Source of the DNA: Opitutia bacterium | GTDB lineage: Bacteria; Verrucomicrobiota; Verrucomicrobiia; Opitutales; T3Sed10-336 | Reading direction: 5' to 3' | Assembly: GCA_050506795.1 (NCBI GenBank) | Contig: JBJHCF010000074.1 | Location: forward strand, 1-12,040 | Length of the DNA: 12,040 nt | Notes under the pieces: generated by a model | What the model saw: only the letters and a program-made list of their open reading frames with translations | What the model was told of the DNA's origin: nothing | Databases searched by the model: none | Shown: piece by piece, positions 725-11,989 of the stretch | Numbering within the stretch: position 1 is the first letter of the stretch | Layout: every line of letters starts with the position of its first letter | Translations under genes and position numbers: made by a program

Positions 725-1612
725 TCAGAAAACGCATTCTTCGAAGGCTTCGCGGGCGATGGCTGCGTAGAGGATGGATTCGGCGTAGCGGTCGCTTTCT
801 TCGACGAGACCGCCGCCGGCGTCGGGAAAAACCCGGGCGTAGTAGATGGTGGAGGCGAGCAGTTCGGGGGCGAAAATCAAAACGTCGCCCGCTCCCGCGT
901 TGGCTTTGAACCCGGCCATGGCCCGGCGCCACATTTCCTTGAAGTGCGCGAGATAATCGACGCCGACAGCCATTCGGGGGCGCTCCGAGAGGTGTTCGAT
1001 CGGCGCCTGCATAAATCCCGGCGCGGCGATCCGGCCATGGAGGAAACCGGTCCGGTCGAAAATAGGTTGCATGAAATCGAGCCTGGCTTCGAAATCGCCG
1101 TAAACCATCTCCTGCCCGCAATAGTAATGACTGAAATCCCCGTTGAACCGGACTTCCGGAAAGGTTTCGGTCAATCGGACCGTGCGCCAGAGATCCTGGG
1201 TGATCGTCGCCCGGTGGGTTTCGATGAACGCCGGCAGGTCATGCGTCTCCGACGCGGTCAGTGTGGCTTCGACCAGCCGGTGTGCTGTCGCGTCGTCCTC
1301 AATCCCGGTGCCGAGGTGAAGCGTGAGACACGAGTCGCCGCGTTGTTTGTGTTTGGAAAAAACGGTGTCGGCGTCTTCGGGAGCGTCGAGCCGGTCCAGG
1401 CCACAATAGGGCAGGCGGCCGCCCTGGAGCGGTGAATGATCTCCACCGAGCTGCACGCCTTCAAAACCGTCCGCCTCGATCCGCTCCGCAGCCGCGGGCC
1501 AGGCGAGGCCGGATCCAATCGAATGAGACGGCAGGGCGAAAAGCGTATCGAGATTCAAGTAAACCCGGAGTTTGGGTGCGTCCGCGGTTCCGTCGTTCAG
1601 GTATTCGGCCAT
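725..1612 (-). CDS. Xylose-isomerase-like TIM-barrel protein (sugar-phosphate isomerase/epimerase family)
   Basis: 295 aa. Motifs ADGFEGVQ, IETHR, FNGDFSHY, LHGRI and FAPEL fit the E/D/H/E metal-ligand pattern of the xylose isomerase/AP-endonuclease-2 fold. Starts 22 nt after the upstream stop. Substrate unknown. Confidence 0.7.
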   Translation of the reverse strand: MAEYLNDGTADAPKLRVYLNLDTLFALPSHSIGSGLAWPAAAERIEADGFEGVQLGGDHSPLQGGRLPYCGLDRLDAPEDADTVFSKHKQRGDSCLTLHLGTGIEDDATAHRLVEATLTASETHDLPAFIETHRATITQDLWRTVRLTETFPEVRFNGDFSHYYCGQEMVYGDFEARLDFMQPIFDRTGFLHGRIAAPGFMQAPIEHLSERPRMAVGVDYLAHFKEMWRRAMAGFKANAGAGDVLIFAPELLASTIYYARVFPDAGGGLVEESDRYAESILYAAIAREAFEECVF

Positions 1613-1634: not shown

Positions 1635-3932
1635 TTAGAATTCGTCGAAAGCGATTTGATCCGGCGTGACGCCGAGTTTTTGCGTGAGCATTTTGGTGCA
1701 TGCTTTGATCATCATCGGTGGACCGCACAGGTAAAATTCGACCGCATTCAAGTTGGGATGGGTTTCCAGGTAGTGGATCAGGACGACTTCGTGGATAAAA
1801 CCGGTCAATCCGGTCCACCGGTCTTCGTCGAGGGGATCCGAGAGCGCGAAATGGAAGTCGAAGTTCGGGTGTTCCGCCGCCAGTTTCTCGAAATAGTCCG
1901 TGTAGAAAAGTTCCTGTTTGGAACGGGCGCCGTACCAATAACTGACCTTGCGGGCGGTTTTCTCGTTCTCGAAGAGGTGGGAAATGTGAGCCCGCAGGGG
2001 AGCCATGCCGGCGCCGCCGCCAATGTAAACCATCTCCTTGCGGGTCGGTTTGATGTGGAAATCCCCGAAAGGGCCGATGGCGGTCACGGTATCGCCCGGT
2101 TTGAGGCTGAAGACGTAGCTGGAACCGATCCCCGGGAGACAATCCTGCCCCGGTGGCGGCGTGGCGATGCGAACGTTGAACCTCAATTGGCGTTCGGTGT
2201 GAAGGTTGCTGGCGATCGAATAGTTGTTGCGGCGTCCCGTTTCGGGATTGCCGACGGTCAGGTCGAAGACATGCTGGCGTTCCCAAACGGCGGCGTACGG
2301 CTCGGGAATGTCGAAGTCGCGGAACCGGATTTGGTCGTACGCGGGGATGTCCAACTGGATGTAGTCACCCGGGGTGAAATCGATCCTTTCCTCGGGATCG
2401 ACCGGCTCCAGGACCAATTCCTTGATAAAGGTGGAGACGTTGCTGTTGCTCACCACGCGAAGCGTGTACGTCTTTTGGTGTCGTGCTCCATCGCCGCCCG
2501 GGTTCTGGATATTGAGCCGGATACGCCCATTGCGCTCTTCGATGGGGTACGTTGCGAGACCCCGGCAGACGGGGGCGCGGGCGGGAGAACCGTCGGCAAG
2601 ATTAAAGCGACCGTTGTGCTTCGGGCACTCGATGATTTTTCCCTTTACCAAACCGTCCGAGAGATGGGTGTTGCCGTGGGTGCAGACGCCGTCGGTGGCG
2701 TATAAAAGACCCTCGGCATCGCGACACAAGGCGAACGTCTTTTTGCCGTGATCGAAGCGGATGACATCTTCCGGTCCGAGATCGGCGCCGGCGCAAATCT
2801 CCAGCCACCCTGCGGCGTCGGGAGAAGCGTCGGAGCGGTGGCCGGATTCCTGCGAGTGTTCTTTCGACGGCGGAAGTTTCCGTTTCACGTGGTAGGTCGG
2901 ATCCTTCACCTGCTTGAGCACGGCCGGGATGATCTCTTTCCAGGCGGCGAAGAGACTTGGGTAGGGTTCGGGCATGTCGTCTTTGACGGCGTCGTGCAGT
3001 TTTGGCAAGGCGTGGTATGGAACAAGCGGAAACATGTGATGCTCCACATGGTAATTCATGTTCCAATACAAAAACCGGTGAATCGGATTCATGTAAACCG
3101 TCCGGCAATTTAGGCGGTGGTCGAGAACGTTCTCGGCCAGGCCGGCGTGCTGCGTGTACCCGTAGATCGGCATCAGCCAGGCTCCGAAAAGATTGCAGCC
3201 GCCGACCAGGAGGATCGGGAGAATGCTTCCCGTGTAGACGCTGAGTGCTATCACGGCGGCGTAGATGGCGACGTAAATGCGGGCCCGGCGGTACACCTTG
3301 GGGAATTCGCTCTCGGGAATGAACGTCTTTTCGTCCTCCGACATCTTTCCGAAGCTGTGCAGGACGATCGATTTAAAGTAGGTGAAGTAGACTTTCCAGT
3401 TGATGAAACTGAGGATCAGCGCCCTGATATTCGGCGGGCGAGGGACGGCGATTTCCGGGTCCCGGCCGACGATTATGGTGTCGCTGTGGTGGCGGGTGTG
3501 GCTCCAGCGCCAGACGGTCGATTCGCGCATCACCATGAACGAGGCGATTTCATAGAGCCAGTTGTTCATCCAATCGGTTTTGAATGCGGTGCCGTGTCCG
3601 GCTTCGTGCCAACGGGAATCGGAAGTCGACGCGTAGAGGGCGGCGTAGCACAGATAGGGAAGAACCGCCCACCAGCTTCCCCAGAGCAGAAAGGTCAGGT
3701 AACCGAATCCGACGATCAGCCCGAGCCAGAGGAGGGTGTCCCGAATCGCCGGCCCGTCCTTGCGTACCAGCAGACTGCGCATGGTGGCGCGGGGCACCGG
3801 CGATTGATACCAGTCCGCTTCGGCCAGACCGAGCTCGACCGCTCGTTCGGCGTTCTTTCCGGTCAGACTGTAATCCAGAGTGGAAGGGGGGCGCTGCAGG
3901 GCGGTCGTCCCGTGATCGTGATCGTGGTCCAT
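1635..3932 (-). CDS. Fusion protein: fatty-acid-desaturase-superfamily (MocD-like) di-iron oxygenase + Rieske [2Fe-2S] ferredoxin (MocE-like) + NqrF-like FAD/NADH oxidoreductase
   Basis: Likely start is ATG 3932 (MDHDHDH..., 765 aa); the ORF-track extension to 4202 overlaps galM. His boxes HEAGH, HTRHH, QH and NYHVEHH plus hydrophobic helices (~3932-2880). Rieske CTH...CPKH (~2810-2505). FNR-family reductase with TFIKEL, NVRIATPPP, GPFGDF, IGGGAGMAP, YWYGARS, CGPPMM and terminal FDEF (~2470-1635), closely resembling the NqrF C-terminal domain. Confidence 0.9.
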   Translation of the reverse strand: MDHDHDHGTTALQRPPSTLDYSLTGKNAERAVELGLAEADWYQSPVPRATMRSLLVRKDGPAIRDTLLWLGLIVGFGYLTFLLWGSWWAVLPYLCYAALYASTSDSRWHEAGHGTAFKTDWMNNWLYEIASFMVMRESTVWRWSHTRHHSDTIIVGRDPEIAVPRPPNIRALILSFINWKVYFTYFKSIVLHSFGKMSEDEKTFIPESEFPKVYRRARIYVAIYAAVIALSVYTGSILPILLVGGCNLFGAWLMPIYGYTQHAGLAENVLDHRLNCRTVYMNPIHRFLYWNMNYHVEHHMFPLVPYHALPKLHDAVKDDMPEPYPSLFAAWKEIIPAVLKQVKDPTYHVKRKLPPSKEHSQESGHRSDASPDAAGWLEICAGADLGPEDVIRFDHGKKTFALCRDAEGLLYATDGVCTHGNTHLSDGLVKGKIIECPKHNGRFNLADGSPARAPVCRGLATYPIEERNGRIRLNIQNPGGDGARHQKTYTLRVVSNSNVSTFIKELVLEPVDPEERIDFTPGDYIQLDIPAYDQIRFRDFDIPEPYAAVWERQHVFDLTVGNPETGRRNNYSIASNLHTERQLRFNVRIATPPPGQDCLPGIGSSYVFSLKPGDTVTAIGPFGDFHIKPTRKEMVYIGGGAGMAPLRAHISHLFENEKTARKVSYWYGARSKQELFYTDYFEKLAAEHPNFDFHFALSDPLDEDRWTGLTGFIHEVVLIHYLETHPNLNAVEFYLCGPPMMIKACTKMLTQKLGVTPDQIAFDEF

Positions 3933-3981
3933 AAACGTCGTGAATTGAAGGTTTAATTGGTTGGGTGTTCGGCGACTCGGT

Positions 3982-5037
3982 TCAAACGGTGCCGAAGGCG
4001 TAAATCGTGGTGTGGTGTTGCGGTTGGCCCGGCCGGACCAGTATGTCGCCGAATCCTGTGACATTGGTGGCTTCCGGGTATTCCTCGCATTCCAGGCAAA
4101 ACGCGCCGAATCTTTCGTATGGACGGCCGGCTTTGCCGCGGATGCTGCCATCCAGGCTGCTGCTGAAGAAGGTTTGGAGACAGCTGTTGGTGGTCCGGAC
4201 ATCGAGGACCCGGCCGGTCGATGGATCTTCGATGCGGGCCGCCTGCCTCAGGGTTTTGTCAGTGCCGATCCAATACAAGTCGCCGTGGCTCTGCCACAGG
4301 CCGGGAATGACCGTTCCGAGACGGACCGGTGTGCGCATGTCAGCCGCCCGGCCATCCACCGGTTCGAGGCGGTTGAGAAGCGTCATTGCCTCGTCGGAGG
4401 GAATGATTTGGGAGCTGTAGATTTGAGCCCGGTGGTCGAGGATCGTGCCGTTGCCCTCGCCGGCCAGATTGAAGTAGGAATGGTGGGTGATGCTCGCCGG
4501 AGTGGCCCGGTCCGATTCGACGAAGGTCTCAAAGACGAACTCATTGGCGGCGGTGACGGTGTAGGTCACGGCGACCTTGAGATTGCCCGGGTAACCTTGG
4601 TCCCCGTCCGGACTCTCGCAGCTCAGTTTCAGTGATGGAGCGCCATCGGGCCTCTCGACAGGTTCCGCTTTCCAGACTCGGGTATGCAATGCTCCGGGAC
4701 CGCCATGGAGGTGATTTGGGGGGTTATTGACCGGAAGCTGGAATGCCTCGGAGCCGAATTTCAACGTTCCCCCGGCGATCCGGCCCGCGACCCGTCCTAT
4801 CGTGGCGCCAAAGTAAGCAGGATTTTCCAGGTACGGTTCGAGATCCGGATACCCCAGGACCAGATCGGCAAACGAGCCGTTCCGGTCGGGAGCGGCCAAC
4901 CGGCGGACGATCCCCCCGAGGGTAAGGATTTCGAGCTCGAGGCCACCCGCGCCCTTCAGAGTCCAGGCTTCAACGGATTGGCCGTTGGGCATGGTACCAA
5001 AGTTTGCGGATCGCGATTGGGCATGGGTCTCGATCAT
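3982..5037 (-). CDS. galM: Aldose 1-epimerase (mutarotase)
   Basis: 351 aa. Motifs DLVLGY, YFGATIGRVAGRI, NHLHGG, DGDQGYPGNL, HHSYFNLAG and FCLE (catalytic His and Glu retained). Confidence 0.92.
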   Translation of the reverse strand: MIETHAQSRSANFGTMPNGQSVEAWTLKGAGGLELEILTLGGIVRRLAAPDRNGSFADLVLGYPDLEPYLENPAYFGATIGRVAGRIAGGTLKFGSEAFQLPVNNPPNHLHGGPGALHTRVWKAEPVERPDGAPSLKLSCESPDGDQGYPGNLKVAVTYTVTAANEFVFETFVESDRATPASITHHSYFNLAGEGNGTILDHRAQIYSSQIIPSDEAMTLLNRLEPVDGRAADMRTPVRLGTVIPGLWQSHGDLYWIGTDKTLRQAARIEDPSTGRVLDVRTTNSCLQTFFSSSLDGSIRGKAGRPYERFGAFCLECEEYPEATNVTGFGDILVRPGQPQHHTTIYAFGTV

Positions 5038-5166: not shown

Positions 5167-6738
5167 TCAGCGGTCGTGATCGAGCGGATCCAGGGGCATG
5201 CAATCGATGAAGTGGTCTTCGAAGGACTCGACCTGGTTGAGTTCGATTACCCGGGCGTTGGCGCGGAGCGTCTCAATGGCGGATTCGTTTTCGGATTGCA
5301 GCATCAGTGAGGCCCCGCCGAGGGAAGCGTTGCCGATCACCCTGAGTCGGTCAAACGGGACGTTGGGAAGCATTCCGACCGCCATGGCGTGTTTGCGGTC
5401 GAGGTGATAGCCGAAGCCGCCGGCGATGAAGATCGTTTCCAAATCGTCCGGCCGGAGATCGGCCACTTCCAACAGGGTCGTCACGCCGGCGGCAATGGCG
5501 GCTTTGGCTTGGATAAGTTCCGCGACGTCGGATTCGGAGACAAAGAGCCGGCTGTGGATCGTCACCCGGCATTCCGGTCCGTCGGGACCTGCGCGTGTTT
5601 CGACTTCGGGATGGTTCGACTCGAATCGTCCCATTGCGTTGAGCAGGCCTTCCGTCCGGGCGAGGGCAAGGAAGTCGACGTAGGCCGCTCCCGATATCGC
5701 CGACGGGCGGACTCGTTGTTCGCCGATGGAATGCAGTTGGGACCAGCGGCCGGATTCGCGGGTAAGAGCTGAAATCACGTTTTTGGCGGCCGGGGCGCCG
5801 CAGTTCAGGCGGCCGCCTTCGAAGGCGGGGCCGGCGGCGGTGGCGGTGGCGAGAAAGCCGTCGGCGGTTTTGAGCAGAATTTCGCCGTTGGTGCCGAAAT
5901 CGATCAGGAGAGCCGGGCGTTCGAGTTCCAGAATACCGGAGGCCAAAGCGCCCGCGATGATGTCGGCCCCGACGAACGGTCCGAGACTGCCGGCGAGCAT
6001 GAGGGGGAAATCGGTTGAAAACCCGAGGCTCGCGGAGGGAACGGTGCTGGCTTCGAGGAACTCCGGCTCGAAGGGGTACGAGGCGAAGCCCGATAGCCGG
6101 GCTCCGGTCAGGCTGTGCAGCATCACGGTGTTGCCGGCGGCGATGCCTTCGGTGATTTTCGACGGTTCGACGTCGGCGTTCCGGCAAAGACGGTCGATCA
6201 AAGGTCCGAGAGCGTCCCGGACCAAGGCTGCTTGCAGTTTGGGGCAGGCGCCTCCTTGTGTAACGGCATGATCGATACGGGAAAGGACGTTGTCGCCGTA
6301 GCGCCGTTGTTCGTTGGCGGCGGATCCGCCGGCGAGGCATTTGCCGGTCGCGAGATCCCAGAGCGCGGCGGCGACGGTGGTGGTTCCGATATCGAGAGCC
6401 AGGCCGATGCCGGGCCGGCGGCGAAGCGCATGGGAATGTGTTCCGATCTCGAAGGAACTCACTCCGTTCAGACTTTGGTCACGCACCGACGCCTCGGGGA
6501 TGCGTATCGAGGCCCCGTCGGCCGGGAGCTGGGCGCAGGTGATTTGGCAGGCGCGGCGCGGAGTTCCGTCGACCTCCACCAGGCAGCTTCGGCAAAGTCC
6601 GCGTCCGCCGCAGCGCGTGTTCAGCGGAAGATGTTCCGTTTCGAGCCACTCGGAGAGGATCCGGGATGTGTCGGCTGGAGTGGCGCGGAGGTAACGGCGT
6701 CCATCGGGCATGTCGATGAGAATGTCGGATCGGGACAT
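5167..6738 (-). CDS. ASKHA-domain ATP-dependent reductive activator of corrinoid proteins (RACo/DUF4445) with N-terminal [2Fe-2S] domain
   Basis: 523 aa. N-terminal CGGRGLCRSC...RACQ. ASKHA motifs LDIGTTT, YGDNVLSRI, AGNTVMLH, FVGADI, IDFGTNGEI, AAGPAFEGG, QAKAAIAAG, IAGGFG and GNASLGGA. Context is a corrinoid methyltransferase cluster. Confidence 0.92.
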   Translation of the reverse strand: MSRSDILIDMPDGRRYLRATPADTSRILSEWLETEHLPLNTRCGGRGLCRSCLVEVDGTPRRACQITCAQLPADGASIRIPEASVRDQSLNGVSSFEIGTHSHALRRRPGIGLALDIGTTTVAAALWDLATGKCLAGGSAANEQRRYGDNVLSRIDHAVTQGGACPKLQAALVRDALGPLIDRLCRNADVEPSKITEGIAAGNTVMLHSLTGARLSGFASYPFEPEFLEASTVPSASLGFSTDFPLMLAGSLGPFVGADIIAGALASGILELERPALLIDFGTNGEILLKTADGFLATATAAGPAFEGGRLNCGAPAAKNVISALTRESGRWSQLHSIGEQRVRPSAISGAAYVDFLALARTEGLLNAMGRFESNHPEVETRAGPDGPECRVTIHSRLFVSESDVAELIQAKAAIAAGVTTLLEVADLRPDDLETIFIAGGFGYHLDRKHAMAVGMLPNVPFDRLRVIGNASLGGASLMLQSENESAIETLRANARVIELNQVESFEDHFIDCMPLDPLDHDR

Positions 6739-6742
6739 GACA

Positions 6743-7468
6743 TCAGGGGCGGGCGACGAGGGTGCCGTCGGAATCGGCCTCGATCGAATGATCGGGCGGG
6801 ACGATCAGAAACCGGTCGGAGTGCCAGTCCCGGTTGATGAGCTGGAGGAGAAAGGAAGGATCCGCTTTCAGGCATTGGAATTCCCAGCCCTGGTGGGAGG
6901 CACAGTCGCGGCAATAGTTTTCGGCGGCCGGTTTGTTGAAAATGGAGAGGTAGGCCGCGCGGTTGTGGTGGGCTAAAGCTTCCCGGTCGGCGTCGACCAA
7001 TTCGTCGAGCATCTCCTCGTCGTCGCCGTAACGTTCGGAGTAGAGTTCACGCAGGTGTTGTTCCCGGTCAGGCCCGGGGACGCGTTTTCCGCGGATCCAC
7101 CCTGGCGAGTAGAAATAAGTCCCCGGATTCTTCTTCAGGACGGCGTCGTGCTGAGCTCGTCCGCCGAGCAGGATGGAAATGCAGTCGTGTGCCTGCGGGA
7201 GGATCAGGCGGCAACGTTCCGCCCTGACGCCGAGCAAGCCGTTTCCGCAGCGGCCGTAGGCGAGTAGGATGGTTTGCAGTTGCGGGTGGTCGGCCTCGAG
7301 GGAAGCGATTTGTTGTTGGACTGTTTCCCGAAGTTGGTCCGGCCGGTCGTGGAGTCCCATCTCCAGGAAGACCGCGGCGCACCAGGGAGGGGAGGCTGTT
7401 ACAAAATGGTTGATTTCCTCCTTGAAAACATCGCAGGCGAGTAGGGCGTGATGGCCGGCTGGTTTCAT
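6743..7468 (-). CDS. DUF1638 family protein (associated with corrinoid methyltransferase clusters)
   Basis: Likely start is ATG 7468 (MKPAGHHALLACDVF..., 241 aa), overlapping the upstream stop in ATGA. Motifs ACDVFKEE, LEMGLHDRP, YGRCGNGL, AHDCISILLG and GTYFYSPGW. Confidence 0.85.
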   Translation of the reverse strand: MKPAGHHALLACDVFKEEINHFVTASPPWCAAVFLEMGLHDRPDQLRETVQQQIASLEADHPQLQTILLAYGRCGNGLLGVRAERCRLILPQAHDCISILLGGRAQHDAVLKKNPGTYFYSPGWIRGKRVPGPDREQHLRELYSERYGDDEEMLDELVDADREALAHHNRAAYLSIFNKPAAENYCRDCASHQGWEFQCLKADPSFLLQLINRDWHSDRFLIVPPDHSIEADSDGTLVARP

Positions 7469-8733
7469 GGAGCCGCCATCCCATTGAACTCCCGCACTGC
7501 ATCGAGCATGGCGACGACGTTTTCGGTGGGAGTGCGGGCCTGGATGTTGTGAATGGTGTTGAACACGAACCCGCCGCCCGGGCCGAAAATCCGGCAGCGT
7601 TCGATCACTTCGTCGCGGACCTGCTGTGGGGTGCCGAATGGAAGCGTTTGCTGGGTATTGACGCCTCCGCCCCAGAAGGTGAGGCGGTCGCCGTATTTGT
7701 TTTTCAACAACTGTGGATCCATGCCGTCGGCCGAGCATTGGACCGGATTGATGATATCGAAGCCCGATTCGATAAAACTGTCGAGCAATGGTTCCACGGC
7801 GCCGCAAGAGTGCTTGAAGGTTTTCCAGCGTGTGTTTTGATGGATCCAGTCGTTGATCTTTTTGTAGCGCGGCAGCCAGATCCGTTCATAGGTTTCGACG
7901 CTGCAAAAGAGGGAGGTTTGGGTGCCGAAGTCGGTGCCGCAGACGACCACAACATCAATCACATCGCCCGCAATTTTGTGGAGTTTTTCCATATTGTGAA
8001 TGGCGATCTCGGTCTGCCGATCGAAGATTTTTCCGACGAAATCGGGTTCCTCGGATGTGAGCATGTACCAGTCCGCCACGCCCCGGACTCCCTTGGGATG
8101 GGTCAGAAAAGGGGCGGGAACCAGAGCGATGTCGCCGAGGCCGGTGCCGTTCAGATGGACGGAGACGGCCCGGTCGGAGCCCCGGGAGAGTTCGGCCTGT
8201 TCCTTCCAATACGTTTCCTCCTCCGTCGACATCGGGCCGAACTCTTCGAGATTGTCTTCGAGCTTCAATTCGTCCTCGTCGAAGTCCGGGTCGATTCGCT
8301 CGATGGTGTCAAAGAAGTAGCCGGTCTTGGGCATATGACCGCTGGGCGGGGCGGACCGGTCGCCTTGGGGAAAGATGAAGGTGTTCCCGTGCGGGTCGGT
8401 GGTGGTTTGAAAATGTTTGGAGACCAGCACCTGTTGTCCCCAGGGAGTGGTCCATGGCGTCCAATCCTCGTTGGGAAACCCGAAGATGGTGCGTTGCGGG
8501 AAGATCGGCCGGACATCGATTCCCATGGCGTCGAGCAGGTCTTCCTCGACGACCCCAAGCATCTGGTAGGGCTCGCCGATTTTGACCGGGCGTTCGGTGA
8601 GACCGTAGTGGTGTCGCAAACCTTCGACGACGCTGCAGTGGATGCCGGTGATGAAGGAGCTGCCGAAATCGATCGGGATGCGGTCGGGCTCGCGGTGGTT
8701 GAGACTCTCGATGACGCGTTGTTTGGAAGTCAT
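7465..8733 (-). CDS. Uroporphyrinogen-decarboxylase-fold (URO-D/MtaA-like) corrinoid-dependent methyltransferase
   Basis: 422 aa. N-terminus MTSKQRV...HREPDRIPIDFG, then GTDFGTQ, KHSCG, GFDIINPVQ, LTFWGG, LPFGTP and GGFVFNTIHNIQ. These are typical of bacterial URO-D-family methyltransferases rather than true HemE. Confidence 0.85.
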   Translation of the reverse strand: MTSKQRVIESLNHREPDRIPIDFGSSFITGIHCSVVEGLRHHYGLTERPVKIGEPYQMLGVVEEDLLDAMGIDVRPIFPQRTIFGFPNEDWTPWTTPWGQQVLVSKHFQTTTDPHGNTFIFPQGDRSAPPSGHMPKTGYFFDTIERIDPDFDEDELKLEDNLEEFGPMSTEEETYWKEQAELSRGSDRAVSVHLNGTGLGDIALVPAPFLTHPKGVRGVADWYMLTSEEPDFVGKIFDRQTEIAIHNMEKLHKIAGDVIDVVVVCGTDFGTQTSLFCSVETYERIWLPRYKKINDWIHQNTRWKTFKHSCGAVEPLLDSFIESGFDIINPVQCSADGMDPQLLKNKYGDRLTFWGGGVNTQQTLPFGTPQQVRDEVIERCRIFGPGGGFVFNTIHNIQARTPTENVVAMLDAVREFNGMAAP

Positions 8734-8757
8734 GGGCTGAAGGTGTCGGTGTCAGGT

Positions 8758-10143
8758 TTATGGCTGCGCGGCGAGGTATTCTTCCGGGTTGAATTTGGTG
8801 CGGTCGGATTCTTCGAGCATTTCGTCGATGAACTCGTCCTCGGTGTCGGGCATCTCGTCCAATTCGTCCTCCATGCGTTGGAGCCAGGAGGTTTCGCGGG
8901 GGTCGCTGGGCAGGCAACCCCCTTCGGTGGCTTCGCGAAGGATGGTGATCGCCGTCCGGGCGGCGGCGATGCCGGCGTGGTAGTGAGATTCCGATTCCAC
9001 GATCGATCCGGCGATGCGGACGCTGCTCTCGGGGGAGATGATCAGGGCCTGAGGATCGTGACCGGCATCCGATTTCACCAGCCAGTTGCGCAACGTCAGG
9101 GCCGATTCCTTGCCCTCGCCGGAGGCGCAATTCATCAGGCGGCAGTCGTAGACCAATTGCTCCATGTAGCAAGTGGGGGCCATGCCGGCGAGCAGTTTGA
9201 TGTTCTGGACGGATTCGTTCGACCAAAGATCGGCGGTGGCGGCGGCGAGGTTGCCCATCGGGCTGAGGTGGGCACAGGCGGCGGTTTTCCCTTCCATGCT
9301 CATGGGGCATCCGGTGATCGCCTTGAGGATCGGGTTTTCGTAACCGCAGTCTTTTCCGGGCCCGACGGCACCGCATTCGTAGGCGACGAGGGAGCGGACG
9401 GCGGTGATTGCCCGGACGACGGAGGCAAAGATGCGGGGGATCATTTTCCGTTCCGCCAGGACCATGGCGGTATTGCCGAAGCCACAAGCGGTGTCGCCGG
9501 CGGCGTATGCGCCATGCTTGTTCGCGATTGCGACGATATGATCCCAGAGGAATCGCATGTCCCGCACTCCGAGCACGCACAGCGCAAAAATTACGGCGCG
9601 AAGGTCGCCGTTGACCAGCGCGTCATCGTGCACCTCTTTGCCGCCCACGCTTTCGATGCTGAGGAATTCCGTGCCGGCGGCGGCGGAGCGGTCGAAGAGT
9701 TCGAGCATGGCGTCGAGGTAGCGCCCTCCGCGCATCACCGGGGGCCGGACGAATTCGCGGTTGTCGTTCGGCGTGCAACGCAATGTCGCCCTGAGGCCGT
9801 ACTTGTCGTGGGCGTGTTCGATGCCGTGGAGAAGGATGTCGACCACCTCCATGCCGAGGTCCGGAAACTCGGTCATCGGCGGCAGCGTTTCGAACTCCAG
9901 CATCACGCCGGGAATCTCCAGTTCCGCGGCCCGTTCGAGGGCGCCGGTGACGATCTGTTTGTAATGCCGGGCGATGGCGGGCATCGATTCCTTCCGGATG
10001 TCGATATCGGGTAGGGTGAAGTTGAGCTCCGGATACACGGTTCCCCCGCCGATGACCATGCCGTGGCGGGTGGTGATCGGGTGAGGCGCGTTTCCGTAGA
10101 TCAGGTCGACGGGATTGGAAATGGCGAGTTTGTTGAATGTCAT
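8758..10143 (-). CDS. mtaB: Methanol:corrinoid methyltransferase (MtaB family, MT1)
   Basis: 461 aa, similar along its length to bacterial (acetogen-type) MtaB as recalled: IGGGTVYPELNFTLP, LRCTPND, LSIESVGGKEVHD, GDTACGF, GPGKDCGYE, SMEGKTAACAHLS, WSNESVQN, EQLVYDCRLMN, DPQA. The Glu/Cys/Cys zinc ligands are present. Confidence 0.92.
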   Translation of the reverse strand: MTFNKLAISNPVDLIYGNAPHPITTRHGMVIGGGTVYPELNFTLPDIDIRKESMPAIARHYKQIVTGALERAAELEIPGVMLEFETLPPMTEFPDLGMEVVDILLHGIEHAHDKYGLRATLRCTPNDNREFVRPPVMRGGRYLDAMLELFDRSAAAGTEFLSIESVGGKEVHDDALVNGDLRAVIFALCVLGVRDMRFLWDHIVAIANKHGAYAAGDTACGFGNTAMVLAERKMIPRIFASVVRAITAVRSLVAYECGAVGPGKDCGYENPILKAITGCPMSMEGKTAACAHLSPMGNLAAATADLWSNESVQNIKLLAGMAPTCYMEQLVYDCRLMNCASGEGKESALTLRNWLVKSDAGHDPQALIISPESSVRIAGSIVESESHYHAGIAAARTAITILREATEGGCLPSDPRETSWLQRMEDELDEMPDTEDEFIDEMLEESDRTKFNPEEYLAAQP

Positions 10144-10169
10144 CGGCTGCGTTCGGTGTTAAGAGTCGG

Positions 10170-10802
10170 TTATCCGGCCAGAGCTTCCCGGGCGGCATCG
10201 ACGGCGCTGGCGGCGTCGCGCGAGTAGCCGTCGGCGCCGATTTCCGCCGCATAGGAATCGGTGATCGGCGCGCCTCCGACGAGGATTTTCAGATCGGTGT
10301 GACCGGCGTTGCGGATCGCGGCGACGGTATCCTTCATCGCCGGCATGGTGGTGGTCAGGAGGGCGGAAAGCCCGACCAGGTGCGGTTTGTGTTGGTCGAT
10401 GGCGGCGAGGAAGGCGTCGGCGCTGACGTTGACACCGAGATCGATCACTTCGAACCCGGCTCCCTTCCACATCGTGGCGACGAGATTCTTGCCGATATCG
10501 TGCAAGTCTCCCTCGACGGTACCGATGACGGCGGTGAATTCCGGCTTGATGCCGGCCGCGACCAATTTCGGTTCGATCTCGGTCATCGCCTGCTTCATGG
10601 CGCGCGCGGCGACCAGCATTTCCGGAACGAAGATTTCGTTTCTCTTGAAACGCTCGCCGACGACCGACATGGCGGGAATCAAGGCCTGTTCCAGGATGGC
10701 GGACGGTTCGACGCCGGAGTCGAGGAGGTCCGGCATGATGGCCTTGACCTCTTTGCGTTTGCCGTTGATTACGGCGGTTTTGAGATCTTCGAGTGTGCTC
10801 AT
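10170..10802 (-). CDS. Cobalamin-binding corrinoid protein (MtaC/MtbC/MttC-like methyl carrier)
   Basis: Likely start is ATG 10802 (MSTLEDLK..., 210 aa); the ORF-track extension to 11033 overlaps the regulator. Cap domain (GERF...EIFVPEML) and B12-binding GDLHDIGKNLV (DxHxxG), DLGVNV, GLSALLTTTM, VGGAP, IGADGY. Confidence 0.95.
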   Translation of the reverse strand: MSTLEDLKTAVINGKRKEVKAIMPDLLDSGVEPSAILEQALIPAMSVVGERFKRNEIFVPEMLVAARAMKQAMTEIEPKLVAAGIKPEFTAVIGTVEGDLHDIGKNLVATMWKGAGFEVIDLGVNVSADAFLAAIDQHKPHLVGLSALLTTTMPAMKDTVAAIRNAGHTDLKILVGGAPITDSYAAEIGADGYSRDAASAVDAAREALAG

Positions 10803-10918: not shown

Positions 10919-11989
10919 TCAGGTACACACGTGTTTTTTGCCGGTTCGGACCCGTTTTCGGTAGTCCCCCGGAGACAGGGTTAGCGCGGCGCGGAAGGTT
11001 TTGTTGAAATGGCTTTGATCGTAGAATCCGCATTCGGCGCCGATCTCGGCGAGGCTCTTGTCGGTGCGGGCCAGCAATTCTTTGGCTTTGTTGACCCGCA
11101 TCTGGGAAAGCAGGTGGGAAAAGGAACGGCCCATCCGTTCGGTGACCAGCTTGCTGAAGTGACTTGGTGAAACGCCGGCGACGCGGGCCACATCGTCGCG
11201 GCGCAGGTGCTGGTGAAGGTTGGCCTGCATGTGGCGGATGGCTCGCAGGAGCAGAACGGAGTGGGGAAATTCGTGATTGCCGCGGATGCAGTCGATCAGC
11301 GTTTCCAGCATACGCCGAACCCAGGTGGAAAGATCCTCTTCGTCCTCGATTTCAGAGAGTTCCGTCAGAGAGCGGTAGTTGCTGCCAAGCGCGGTGGATG
11401 GTTCGGCGCCGGCTTCGACCGCGGCGCGATTCATCATGACGATCAGTTCGAGGACGCTGCTCTTTAAAAGATCCATGCGGTCTCCGGCGAGGGCGTAAAT
11501 CGCCGTAAGGATCCGGTTCAGGATGGATCGGGCGCGTTGGGTGTCGCTCTCTTTGATGGCGGCAAGCAAGTCGGGTTCCTCGTCCAGGTAGATGCTGCGC
11601 AAATCGTCGCTGACGGAATCTTTTTTGGCCGCTTCGATAGCATAGAAGCGGTCGCTTTCACGGGCGGCGCGTTGGCGGGCCAGTTCGACGGCGGCTCGCG
11701 GGAGAAGATTCTCGCGCAGGGCGAGTTTGAGGAGGGCGCCGGCCGCGTGTTGGACCCGGCCAGGCAGGTCCGGAGCGCCGGTTTCGAGATCGATGCCCTG
11801 GACAATCAAGGCTCCCTTGAGCGCATTGTTGTCCATGATCGGGACACCCCACATCGCGTAGCCGTTGTCGCAGCAGAGGTTGATCACCGTCTCTCCCCAG
11901 TAGAGGGTTTGCTCGGCGGCCTGGAGGCGGCGGCGTTGATTCTGCGACCGGCAGAAGCAATCGGTTCGGGGCTGGCCGCCGGCGACCAC
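10919..11989 (-). CDS. AraC-family transcriptional regulator with Cys-containing PocR-like N-terminal sensor (start uncertain)
   Basis: C-terminal double HTH: LRRDDVARVAGVSPSHFSKL...RVNKAKELL...LAEIGAECGFYDQSHFNKTFR...SPGDYR. N-terminal DCFC...NLCCDNGY..WGVPIM....KGALIV resembles a PocR domain. Helical middle region ELIVMMNRAAVEAGA. An in-frame TAA at 12017-12019 limits upstream extension. Confidence 0.88.
   Translation of the reverse strand: MVAGGQPRTDCFCRSQNQRRRLQAAEQTLYWGETVINLCCDNGYAMWGVPIMDNNALKGALIVQGIDLETGAPDLPGRVQHAAGALLKLALRENLLPRAAVELARQRAARESDRFYAIEAAKKDSVSDDLRSIYLDEEPDLLAAIKESDTQRARSILNRILTAIYALAGDRMDLLKSSVLELIVMMNRAAVEAGAEPSTALGSNYRSLTELSEIEDEEDLSTWVRRMLETLIDCIRGNHEFPHSVLLLRAIRHMQANLHQHLRRDDVARVAGVSPSHFSKLVTERMGRSFSHLLSQMRVNKAKELLARTDKSLAEIGAECGFYDQSHFNKTFRAALTLSPGDYRKRVRTGKKHVCT

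Follow-up and report, generated by a model that had tools for sequence, protein, structure and literature searches.

The operon described here lies in a 12,040-nucleotide stretch of DNA (hereafter the window), which is the entire contig JBJHCF010000074.1 (C74) of the 4.94-Mb draft genome of an Opitutia bacterium of the order Opitutales (Verrucomicrobiota; GenBank assembly GCA_050506795.1; 97.8% complete, 82 contigs). It encodes a member of the methanol:corrinoid methyltransferase family (MtaB), an MtaC/MtgC-like corrinoid (B12) carrier protein and a 422-aa protein of the uroporphyrinogen decarboxylase (URO-D) superfamily, designated UROD420, and constitutes a real, unusual corrinoid methyl-transfer operon. 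The nearest public records to the window are metagenome-assembled genomes (MAGs) of Opitutales and other Verrucomicrobiota, among them a contig of an Opitutales bacterium MAG (L006, 96% identical) and a protein of Pelagicoccus (74% identical, encoded in P. mobilis).

A corrinoid methyl-transfer operon

The genes of the operon are packed tightly on the minus strand in the order AraC-family regulator, corrinoid protein, MtaB, UROD420, DUF1638 protein and reductive activase (RACo). The gaps between the corrinoid protein, MtaB and UROD420 genes measure 24–26 bp (24 bp between UROD420 and MtaB), the stop codon of UROD420 overlaps the start codon of the DUF1638 gene as ATGA, as read from the sequence, and 4 bp separate the latter from RACo. 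An initial annotation, made from the sequence alone, had paired MtaB and the corrinoid protein with a URO-D-fold enzyme and noted that a pterin-binding methyltransferase acting on methyl-tetrahydrofolate (methyl-THF) is missing from the window; both statements are borne out by a Pfam scan of 17 window open reading frames (ORFs), in which all three proteins were matched and Pterin_bind in 0/17.

MtaB (8758..10143, minus strand) matches Pfam PF12176 over profile positions 3–459 of 460 (557.2 bits, cut-off 25; E 3.8e-167). It scores 303.6 bits to the Methanosarcina barkeri enzyme (2i2x) and is identical to it at chain positions 164 (Glu), 220 (Cys) and 269 (Cys), which we take to be the zinc ligands of M. 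barkeri MtaB; the motif regions, compared with 2i2x_A, read SIE/SVE, GDTAC/GDTDC and GKDCGYEN. Its score to the methanogen equivalog model falls below the cut-off (NF040651, 430.1 vs 720 bits), and judged by these scores the window MtaB is a bacterial relative, not a methanogen orthologue. The corrinoid protein (10170..10802, minus strand; Pfam B12-binding 101 bits, B12-binding_2 78.1 bits; NCBIfam pyl_corrinoid 175 bits, under the cut-off of 215.3) has the His-on loop GDLHDIG (D-x-H-x-x-G), whose residues are invariant in 16/16 sequences.

UROD420 (7465..8733, minus strand), the proposed donor-side methyltransferase (MT1) of the operon, is followed by the DUF1638 protein (6743..7468, minus strand; Pfam 125.2 bits) and by a RACo/RamA-type ATP-dependent reductive activase (5167..6738, minus strand), in which the middle and C-terminal ASKHA domains are both present (Raco_middle 129.6 bits, RACo_C_ter 198.5 bits), the N-terminal 2Fe-2S match is weak and NCBIfam AcsV is reached with 279 bits, under its cut-off of 800. 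According to excerpts of the Phaeobacter study (PMC5764234; all papers cited here by PMC number are cited for the parts consulted), DUF1638 co-varies with RamA-like activases and is required for B12-dependent methionine synthesis. Metatranscriptome contigs from alkaline sediment are 98–99% identical to window positions 6971–7220 (DUF1638) and 8094–8402 (UROD420), which suggests, weakly since DNA carry-over is possible, that both genes are expressed in situ; the parts of the window left uncovered in this RNA library are uninformative.

The remaining genes are a regulator and candidate sugar enzymes. The AraC-family protein (10919..11989, minus strand) has a C-terminal helix-turn-helix (Pfam HTH_18 89 bits, HTH_AraC 52.7 bits), an N-terminal sensor part that matches no family and an uncertain true start; homologues border MtaC/MtaB in many related loci. 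An aldose 1-epimerase (GalM-like mutarotase; 3982..5037, minus strand; Pfam Aldose_epim 196.5 bits; NCBIfam galM_Leloir 216 bits, under the cut-off of 397.65) lies 130 bp downstream of RACo. Beyond it a fused membrane protein (1635..4202, minus strand) combines a diiron oxygenase (FA_desaturase, 126.6 bits) with a MocE-like Rieske domain (Rieske 58.8 bits; NCBIfam MocE_fam_FeS 113.3 bits, cut-off 136.15) and an FNR-type reductase (NAD_binding_1 64.2 bits, FAD_binding_6 25.5 bits). Since its ORF overlaps GalM, its true start probably lies downstream of 4202. Homologues, accompanied by an AP_endonuc_2-like gene, occur beside UROD420 or MtaB in L114, L125, L141 and L233, and the fused oxygenase may be an O2-dependent demethylase, an alternative to the corrinoid route. 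The last gene, orf295 (725..1612, minus strand), has no Pfam or NCBIfam match and probably encodes an AP_endonuc_2-like sugar isomerase/epimerase with a xylose-isomerase-like TIM barrel; its nearest ESM Atlas clusters (0.97–0.98), which serve as a lead only, are named xylose isomerase-like TIM barrel or sugar phosphate isomerase, and a homologue (57%) adjoins the oxygenase in L125.

UROD420, a sugar-linked member of the URO-D superfamily

The motifs KHSCG and FNTIHNI, to which the initial annotation had drawn attention, are present at residues 307–311 and 391–397 of UROD420 and contain a putative metal site. In an alignment of 60 diverse family members H308 is conserved in 60/60, C310 in 53/60 (Asp in the other seven) and H395 in 53/60. 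The H-x-C element aligns with LHICG of Methanosarcina mazei MtaA (4ay7). The annotation had further held that His replaces the third zinc-ligand Cys of the methanogen MtaA and MtbA proteins. In related loci the MtaA-like paralogues UROD386, UROD430b and MtaAlike359 do have Cys in the H395 column ('ECD', 'GCD'), which agrees with the claim as far as these paralogues go.

The Pfam URO-D match (55.3 bits, cut-off 23.9) spans only residues 214–416, and the models for MtaA, MtbA and CmuA fail, with only residues 211–416 aligning (TIGR01463, 47 vs 235.4 bits; NF040654, 41.5 vs 400 bits). Because these models fail and His stands at the position of the third Cys, UROD420 is, on sequence criteria, not MtaA. 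Its AlphaFold2 model (pLDDT 96.2) is a URO-D TIM barrel with a beta-rich insertion of ~120 residues following the first strand, and the modelled fold is equally near to true URO-D (1j93; Z 24.7, rmsd 3.6, 314 residues aligned) and to MtaA (4ay7; Z 23.5, rmsd 3.5, 315 aligned). A sequence search of the PDB with UROD420 alone returned marginal URO-D matches only. The sole characterised MT1 compared, CdmB (9rui), aligns at E 0.0027 over the last ~58 residues, at the C-terminus only, and is not among the matches listed in either fold search.

A predicted complex between UROD420 and the corrinoid protein reaches a score of 0.87 (best control, 0.00), with runs agreeing in at least 97% of contacts and a partner pLDDT of at least 89; in a benchmark this mark was attained by 116/157 solved complexes and by 2/215 mismatched pairs. 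The B12 loop of the carrier docks, in the model, at the mouth of the UROD420 barrel beside H395, so that the prediction supports, rather than proves, binding of the two proteins.

The family of UROD420, which is uncharacterised and occurs in degraders of polysaccharides, is very large: among representatives at 50% identity UROD420 has 9321, 4279 and 825 matches at E≤1e-3, 1e-10 and 1e-30, respectively, and at least 8000 matches in one search counting all scored candidates. The surroundings of the family were surveyed in 80 genome loci and 80 metagenome loci, scanned with the window proteins and with proteins derived from the loci; neighbours were counted as directly adjacent (for the porter, on the same strand) or as lying within 5 kb. 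A XylE-like sugar:H+ porter, with scores of up to 544 bits to NCBIfam XylE, is adjacent in 16/80 genome and 9/80 metagenome loci (25/160) and within 5 kb in 22/80 and 11/80, respectively. Pfam assignments for 124 neighbouring ORFs from 20 loci comprise glycoside hydrolases (GH2, GH4, GH29, GH35, GH120), sulfatases, GFO/IolG-like dehydrogenases and AP_endonuc_2 barrels. The corrinoid protein is adjacent in 5/80 genome loci (plus one fusion with homocysteine S-methyltransferase, HcyMT) and 13/80 metagenome loci, that is, in 18 of 160 (19 with the fusion), and lies within 5 kb in 11 (plus two fusions) and 19, respectively. At least one small stand-alone B12-binding protein was found in each of the five whole genomes tested.

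The side of the methyl transfer on which UROD420 works can be approached through the enzymes that accompany it. A number of clusters of relatives contain an acceptor-side methyltransferase, which the window cluster does not. In 7/9 Verrucomicrobiota loci with orthologues of at least 66% identity, the corrinoid protein and UROD420 are joined by a second URO-D protein, after which DUF1638 and RACo often follow; the same set of corrinoid protein, UROD420 and second URO-D protein is found in L009, L159 and L160. The second protein is either MtaA-like (175 bits to the methylcobalamin:coenzyme M model, with a C-terminal thioredoxin-like domain) or has an MtaA-type H-x-C...C, and such MtaA-like or related paralogues stand near UROD420 in L009, L133, L135–L139, L159 and L160. 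HcyMT occurs near UROD420 in L016, L017, L039, L041, L051, L140 and L149. In L017 and L039, where it is fused or adjacent to the corrinoid protein, it is the only other methyltransferase detected near UROD420, and in L051 an HcyMT and corrinoid protein set lies 2–3 kb away. Since HcyMT acts on the acceptor side, UROD420 most plausibly occupies the donor side (MT1) in these loci; this placement and the nearby sugar porters and sugar enzymes make an O-methylated sugar or cyclitol the likeliest substrate. We consider it probable that the UROD420 family represents a sugar-linked, corrinoid-dependent MT1. A further argument for polarity, the exchange of UROD452 in L159 for MtaB in the window, was discarded as it is symmetrical.

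Some of the accompanying proteins have features of their own. An MtaA-like URO-D protein with a C-terminal thioredoxin-like domain (MJ0307 family/Thioredoxin_3) is encoded at L122:4112-5467 and also at L019:6795-8414; the His of its H-x-C is lost ('FVCG'), and the thioredoxin-like domain hints at a thiol or disulfide acceptor. Frames of 442–460 aa with a C-terminal HcyMT domain stand next to UROD420 at L017:11379-12758, L041:13737-15095 and L016:4548-5873, where they overlap or abut the corrinoid-protein match at the 5' end (in L016 as a fusion or as two genes), and look like MetH modules in a different order. In Acidobacteriota-type loci (L041:5072-9146, L218 and L221:60-3191) genes for methylenetetrahydrofolate reductase (MTHFR) and formyltetrahydrofolate synthetase (FTHFS) lie beside UROD420, DUF1638 and RACo, which suggests that these bacteria feed the methyl group into their THF pool.

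The destination of the methyl group

The repertoire of the genome restricts the routes available to the carrier. It holds one MtaB, and the only URO-D protein besides UROD420 is HemE (408 bits). Pterin_bind proteins are limited to FolP (DHPS equivalog, 282 bits) and MetH, and the only S-methyl_trans domain is that of MetH, a full-length protein encoded in a 1283-aa frame with S-methyl_trans, Pterin_bind and B12 domains (C11:~32650-35140). A tblastn search of the genome with all partner proteins found no MtaA-like protein, stand-alone HcyMT or further partner, and matches to acetyl-CoA synthase (ACS, PF03598), FTHFS (PF01268) and MTHFR (PF02219) were absent from the 97.8%-complete assembly; ACS and the methyl branch of the Wood-Ljungdahl pathway, including a pterin methyl-THF methyltransferase, are thus without match. 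A pectin methylesterase, which would be an internal source of methanol, was likewise not found in the genome. The carrier has exactly two candidate methyltransferases in the assembled genome, MtaB and UROD420, and the only sensible catabolic flux runs from ether via corrinoid to methanol, provided that UROD420 is a sugar-ether MT1.

MtaB and UROD420 are adjacent in 1/80 genome loci (L006) and 1/80 metagenome loci (L235). The junction between the two genes is retained in L006 and in a soda-lake contig. L235 is a second, independent pairing: GFO, AP_endonuc_2, UROD420 (57% identity) and MtaB (48%) follow one another on one strand with gaps of 0–27 bp, in a gene order that differs from the window and embedded in sugar genes, and no corrinoid protein or sink was detected nearby. 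Downstream of this operon (L235:10794-12140) lie a glucuronoyl-esterase-like (GCE_fung) and GDSL protein and a large outer-membrane barrel. Glucuronoyl esterases are known for esters of 4-O-methyl-glucuronate, and this neighbour could hint at a substrate of that type.

In the mechanism that we favour, two donor-type methyltransferases sharing one corrinoid carrier would form a corrinoid-dependent methyl ether cleaving system. UROD420 would bind an imported O-methylated sugar or sugar-like cyclitol, its His/Cys/His metal site, presumably zinc, would activate the ether oxygen, and the methyl group would pass to Co(I) on the MtaC-like protein. MtaB working in reverse would then transfer the methyl group from CH3-Co(III) to water and release methanol, the net reaction being R-OCH3 + H2O -> R-OH + CH3OH. 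RACo and DUF1638 would re-reduce the carrier once oxidised to Co(II), the freed aldose would proceed via the mutarotase, and the adjacent fused oxygenase would perform the same demethylation with O2. The gene content, family memberships, conserved residues and genomic associations are observed, as is the lack of matches to further methyltransferases in the assembly, whereas the class of substrate, the identity of the metal and, most of all, the direction in which MtaB works are inferences. Methyl transfer from methyl-sugar via corrinoid to methanol ranks first among the explanations for this genome, although it is held with a little less than even confidence. The initial annotation had already read the locus as a B12-dependent 'methyl-ether hydrolase' releasing methanol. 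Several elements of that reading hold: the URO-D protein is no MtaA, its family has sugar and corrinoid links, relatives place it in the donor slot, none of the other sinks sought was found in the genome and a second UROD420/MtaB operon exists; the reverse direction of MtaB, on which the reading also depends, is its hypothetical part.

A number of observations weigh against it. Reversal of MtaB would require low methanol, since the activation of methanol by this enzyme is slightly exergonic. The genome is a draft of 82 contigs and a sink gene could be unassembled. Adjacency of UROD420 and MtaB is limited to 2/160 UROD420 loci, one of which belongs to the near-identical sister MAG L006, and no corrinoid protein, free or fused, lies within 5 kb of UROD420 in 67/80 genome and 61/80 metagenome loci. 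MtaB itself occurs in 26/401 sampled Verrucomicrobiota genomes. Full-length UROD420 (at least 50% identity) is present in 11/26 MtaB-positive and 27/375 MtaB-negative genomes, an enrichment, although genomes related to one another are not independent and most of the 11 that have both genes show no linkage between them. Around MtaB in 20 loci from other Verrucomicrobiota, the survey found a corrinoid protein (14 loci), RACo (9), a CobW-type GTPase (8), HcyMT (4), MtaA-like or related URO-D paralogues (3) and UROD420 (1, L114); where MtaB stands beside such sinks (HcyMT 4/20, URO-D paralogues 3/20) the forward direction, with methanol as donor, is simplest. In L114 (genome G098) UROD420, a paralogue, HcyMT and MtaB occur together, and since HcyMT is in the same locus MtaB is not needed there as a sink. 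Finally, MetH is present and MTHFR was not found. Methyl-THF thus seems to lack its customary source, which suggests that the cell needs methyl groups rather than their disposal. MTHFR was also unmatched in 2/3 other genomes of the family (each 96–97% complete), as against a match in 60/81 genomes of the order sample.

Beyond the Verrucomicrobiota, MtaB was not matched in five UROD420-bearing Acidobacteriota and Bacteroidota genomes, and it occurs in only 3/351 Acidobacteriota genomes, with UROD420 adjacent in none of those loci. A swap of MtaB for HcyMT as sink between G098 and its congener G107 was also considered and rejected, as the HcyMT of G098 sits between the URO-D paralogue and MtaB. 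The CobW/ZigA-like GTPase directly adjoins MtaB in the 8/20 Verrucomicrobiota loci (L119:8312-9223, L120:10618-11547, L122:8347-9261, L124:2682-3608, L125:12531-13451, L128:8438-9340, L129:7933-8868 and L131:8300-9355) and may serve MtaB as a zinc chaperone; no such GTPase is encoded in the window. Six of the 20 loci (L117, L123, L126, L127, L129 and L131) show no corrinoid protein within the fetched flanks, and in some of these carrier-less loci the neighbours of MtaB are cobalt transport genes (CbiMQ and NikR, in L123) or unrelated genes.

The missing MTHFR gives weight to an anabolic scheme, in which MtaB (from methanol) and UROD420 (from a methyl-sugar) both load the carrier and the methyl group passes to homocysteine and hence methionine, either through the homocysteine-binding module of full-length MetH acting in trans or through an unrecognised or unassembled acceptor enzyme. 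Relatives indeed join these modules to HcyMT (L114, L118, L119, L122, L140, L149, L016, L017, L039, L041 and L051), and in Ruegeria the demethylation of glycine betaine and the synthesis of methionine share one corrinoid protein, together with RamA and DUF1638 (PMC12478193, in excerpt). Such scavenging, a serious alternative, nevertheless seems rather unlikely here: searches of the genome gave no stand-alone HcyMT, the literature consulted documents no case in which a foreign corrinoid protein passes methyl groups to MetH, the demand for methionine is far too small for the methyl groups of a growth substrate, and the MtaB inside the L235 sugar catabolic operon, where neither carrier nor sink was detected, is left unexplained. 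Methyl-THF would also be supplied, and the MTHFR gap closed, by a canonical methanol system in which MtaB methylates the carrier from methanol and UROD420 is the second methyltransferase (MT2), passing the methyl group to THF, a thiol or another nucleophile. An MT1 with corrinoid protein, URO-D-fold methyltransferase and activase is the textbook arrangement (PMC5770442, in excerpt); moreover, the Glu, Cys and Cys of MtaB are intact, the H-x-C of UROD420 aligns with the zinc motif of MtaA and MtaA ties with true URO-D as its closest fold. This forward scheme is nonetheless unlikely, as UROD420 fails the MtaA and CmuA models and has His for the third Cys, its family neighbours are sugar transporters and sugar enzymes, in relatives it accompanies an MtaA-like or HcyMT sink at loci that yielded no other donor enzyme, and no pectin methylesterase that would provide methanol from within was found. 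THF-dependent MT2 enzymes, furthermore, are known from the pterin-binding family. The THF-dependent MT2 CdmA, which is related to MtqA, was modelled on a methyl-THF-binding structure (PMC13222342, in excerpt).

The most radical alternative takes UROD420 for no corrinoid methyltransferase at all, for instance a metal-dependent sugar-modifying enzyme of the URO-D fold, the partners of MtaB and MtaC being encoded elsewhere. The many loci without a corrinoid protein within 5 kb and the equal fold scores of true URO-D and MtaA would fit. It is nevertheless highly improbable in view of the ATGA shared with DUF1638, the spacing of only 24 bp from MtaB, the adjacent corrinoid protein in 18 or 19 of 160 loci, the gene set shared by 7/9 loci with the closest orthologues, the complex prediction (0.87 vs 0.00) and the small B12-binding proteins of all five genomes. 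For the favoured route from methyl-sugar to methanol, support comes from in vitro work, in which an MT1 and a corrinoid protein, with no second methyltransferase present, reversibly shuttle methyl groups from one O-nucleophile to another (PMC13618148, in excerpt).

Significance and comparison with known systems

A wider proposal, offered as possible but more doubtful than not, is that polysaccharide degraders of several phyla (Verrucomicrobiota, Bacteroidota, Acidobacteriota, Planctomycetota and others) carry out O2-independent, B12-dependent O-demethylation of sugars through UROD420, with interchangeable sinks (a thiol via MtaA-like proteins, homocysteine, or water via reverse MtaB); in the variant with water, UROD420 and MtaB together would be a corrinoid-dependent 'methyl ether hydrolase' and a biological source of methanol in anoxic sediments and soils. 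Literature searches returned no report of corrinoid-dependent sugar demethylation, nor of MtaB in these phyla. Polysaccharides of algae and plants commonly contain methylated sugars, among them 6-O-methyl-galactose, 2-O-methyl-fucose and -xylose, 4-O-methyl-glucuronate and O-methyl-inositols. To our knowledge all described routes of sugar O-demethylation require oxygen, and UROD420 may be a means by which anaerobes and sediment bacteria process methylated sugars. Should the UROD420 family prove to be the missing demethylase, a function could be assigned to thousands of 'uroporphyrinogen decarboxylase family' annotations and B12 supply would be tied to glycan turnover; the pairing with MtaB would give a textbook enzyme of methanogenesis a new physiological direction and reveal a new microbial source of methanol, a substrate for methylotrophic methanogens. 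All parts of the system are small soluble proteins, so the idea is directly testable.

Among known systems, the oxidative ones perform the same task of O-demethylation. A P450 acts on 6-O-methyl-galactose in marine Bacteroidota, and MocDEF demethylates the rhizopine 3-O-methyl-scyllo-inosamine with O2; the domain set of the window oxygenase equals MocD, MocE and MocF combined. These routes need O2 and give formaldehyde, whereas the corrinoid route would use no O2 and give methanol or a methylated acceptor.

The MtaABC systems (methanol:coenzyme M in methanogens, methanol:THF in acetogens and sulfate reducers) resemble the window in having an MtaB-family enzyme, an adjacent MtaC-like His-on carrier, an ATP-dependent activase and a URO-D-fold partner. 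In the window, however, that partner fails the MtaA models, is 422 aa long with a beta-rich insert of ~120 residues and has His for the third Cys; its host, a polysaccharide degrader of the Opitutales, yielded no coenzyme M-type MT2, ACS, FTHFS or MTHFR, and the proposed flow is reversed.

Systems built around stand-alone corrinoid proteins have been described in other bacteria. The split B12-dependent methionine synthase and MtgBC of roseobacters (PMC5764234, PMC12478193) share with the window a stand-alone carrier, a RamA-like activase with DUF1638 and hosts that are not strict anaerobes, and one carrier is common to a catabolic donor and methionine synthesis; as far as the consulted parts of these papers go, the donors are unlike those of the window, belonging to the MttB or pterin-binding families, with neither MtaB nor a URO-D-fold enzyme. 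The proteins of the Type 1 mlp clusters (Kountz & Balskus preprint, PMC10418091) are close to the coenzyme M methyltransferases, occur in obligate anaerobes, mostly Firmicutes, and are connected with methyl-sulfur or methyl-selenium metabolism; a term search of the preprint gave no MtaB partner, the one mention of MtaB being in the legend of a figure about methanogenesis, and neither 'sugar' nor 'Verrucomicrobia' was matched.

UROD420 also resembles the MT1 enzymes of the UroD superfamily as presented in the consulted parts of PMC13222342, namely the aromatic O-demethylases MtvB, OdmB, VdmB and MtoB and the chloromethane dehalogenase CdmB. They too are URO-D TIM barrels of ~420–430 aa with insertions early in the barrel (the extensions of CdmB, 429 aa, are located similarly to the insertion of UROD420), work with a separate corrinoid protein, as UROD420 is proposed to do, and with an activase and MT2, and have, like UROD420, many paralogues of unknown substrate. 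The resemblance in sequence to CdmB is nevertheless marginal, and CdmB shows no metal where UROD420 has the conserved His/Cys/His triad; the neighbours of UROD420 are sugar porters and sugar enzymes instead of genes of aromatic or haloalkane metabolism, and its hosts are Verrucomicrobiota, Bacteroidota, Acidobacteriota and Planctomycetota instead of Bacillota. The proposed chemistry is comparable to the in vitro shuttle of the Kroutil group (PMC13618148, in excerpt), in which methyl transfer from O to O proceeds reversibly via CH3-Co(III), no dedicated MT2 takes part and components can be mixed across systems. That shuttle is laboratory catalysis with catechols, whereas the window would combine two natural MT1 enzymes in a physiological setting, with MtaB using water as the acceptor.

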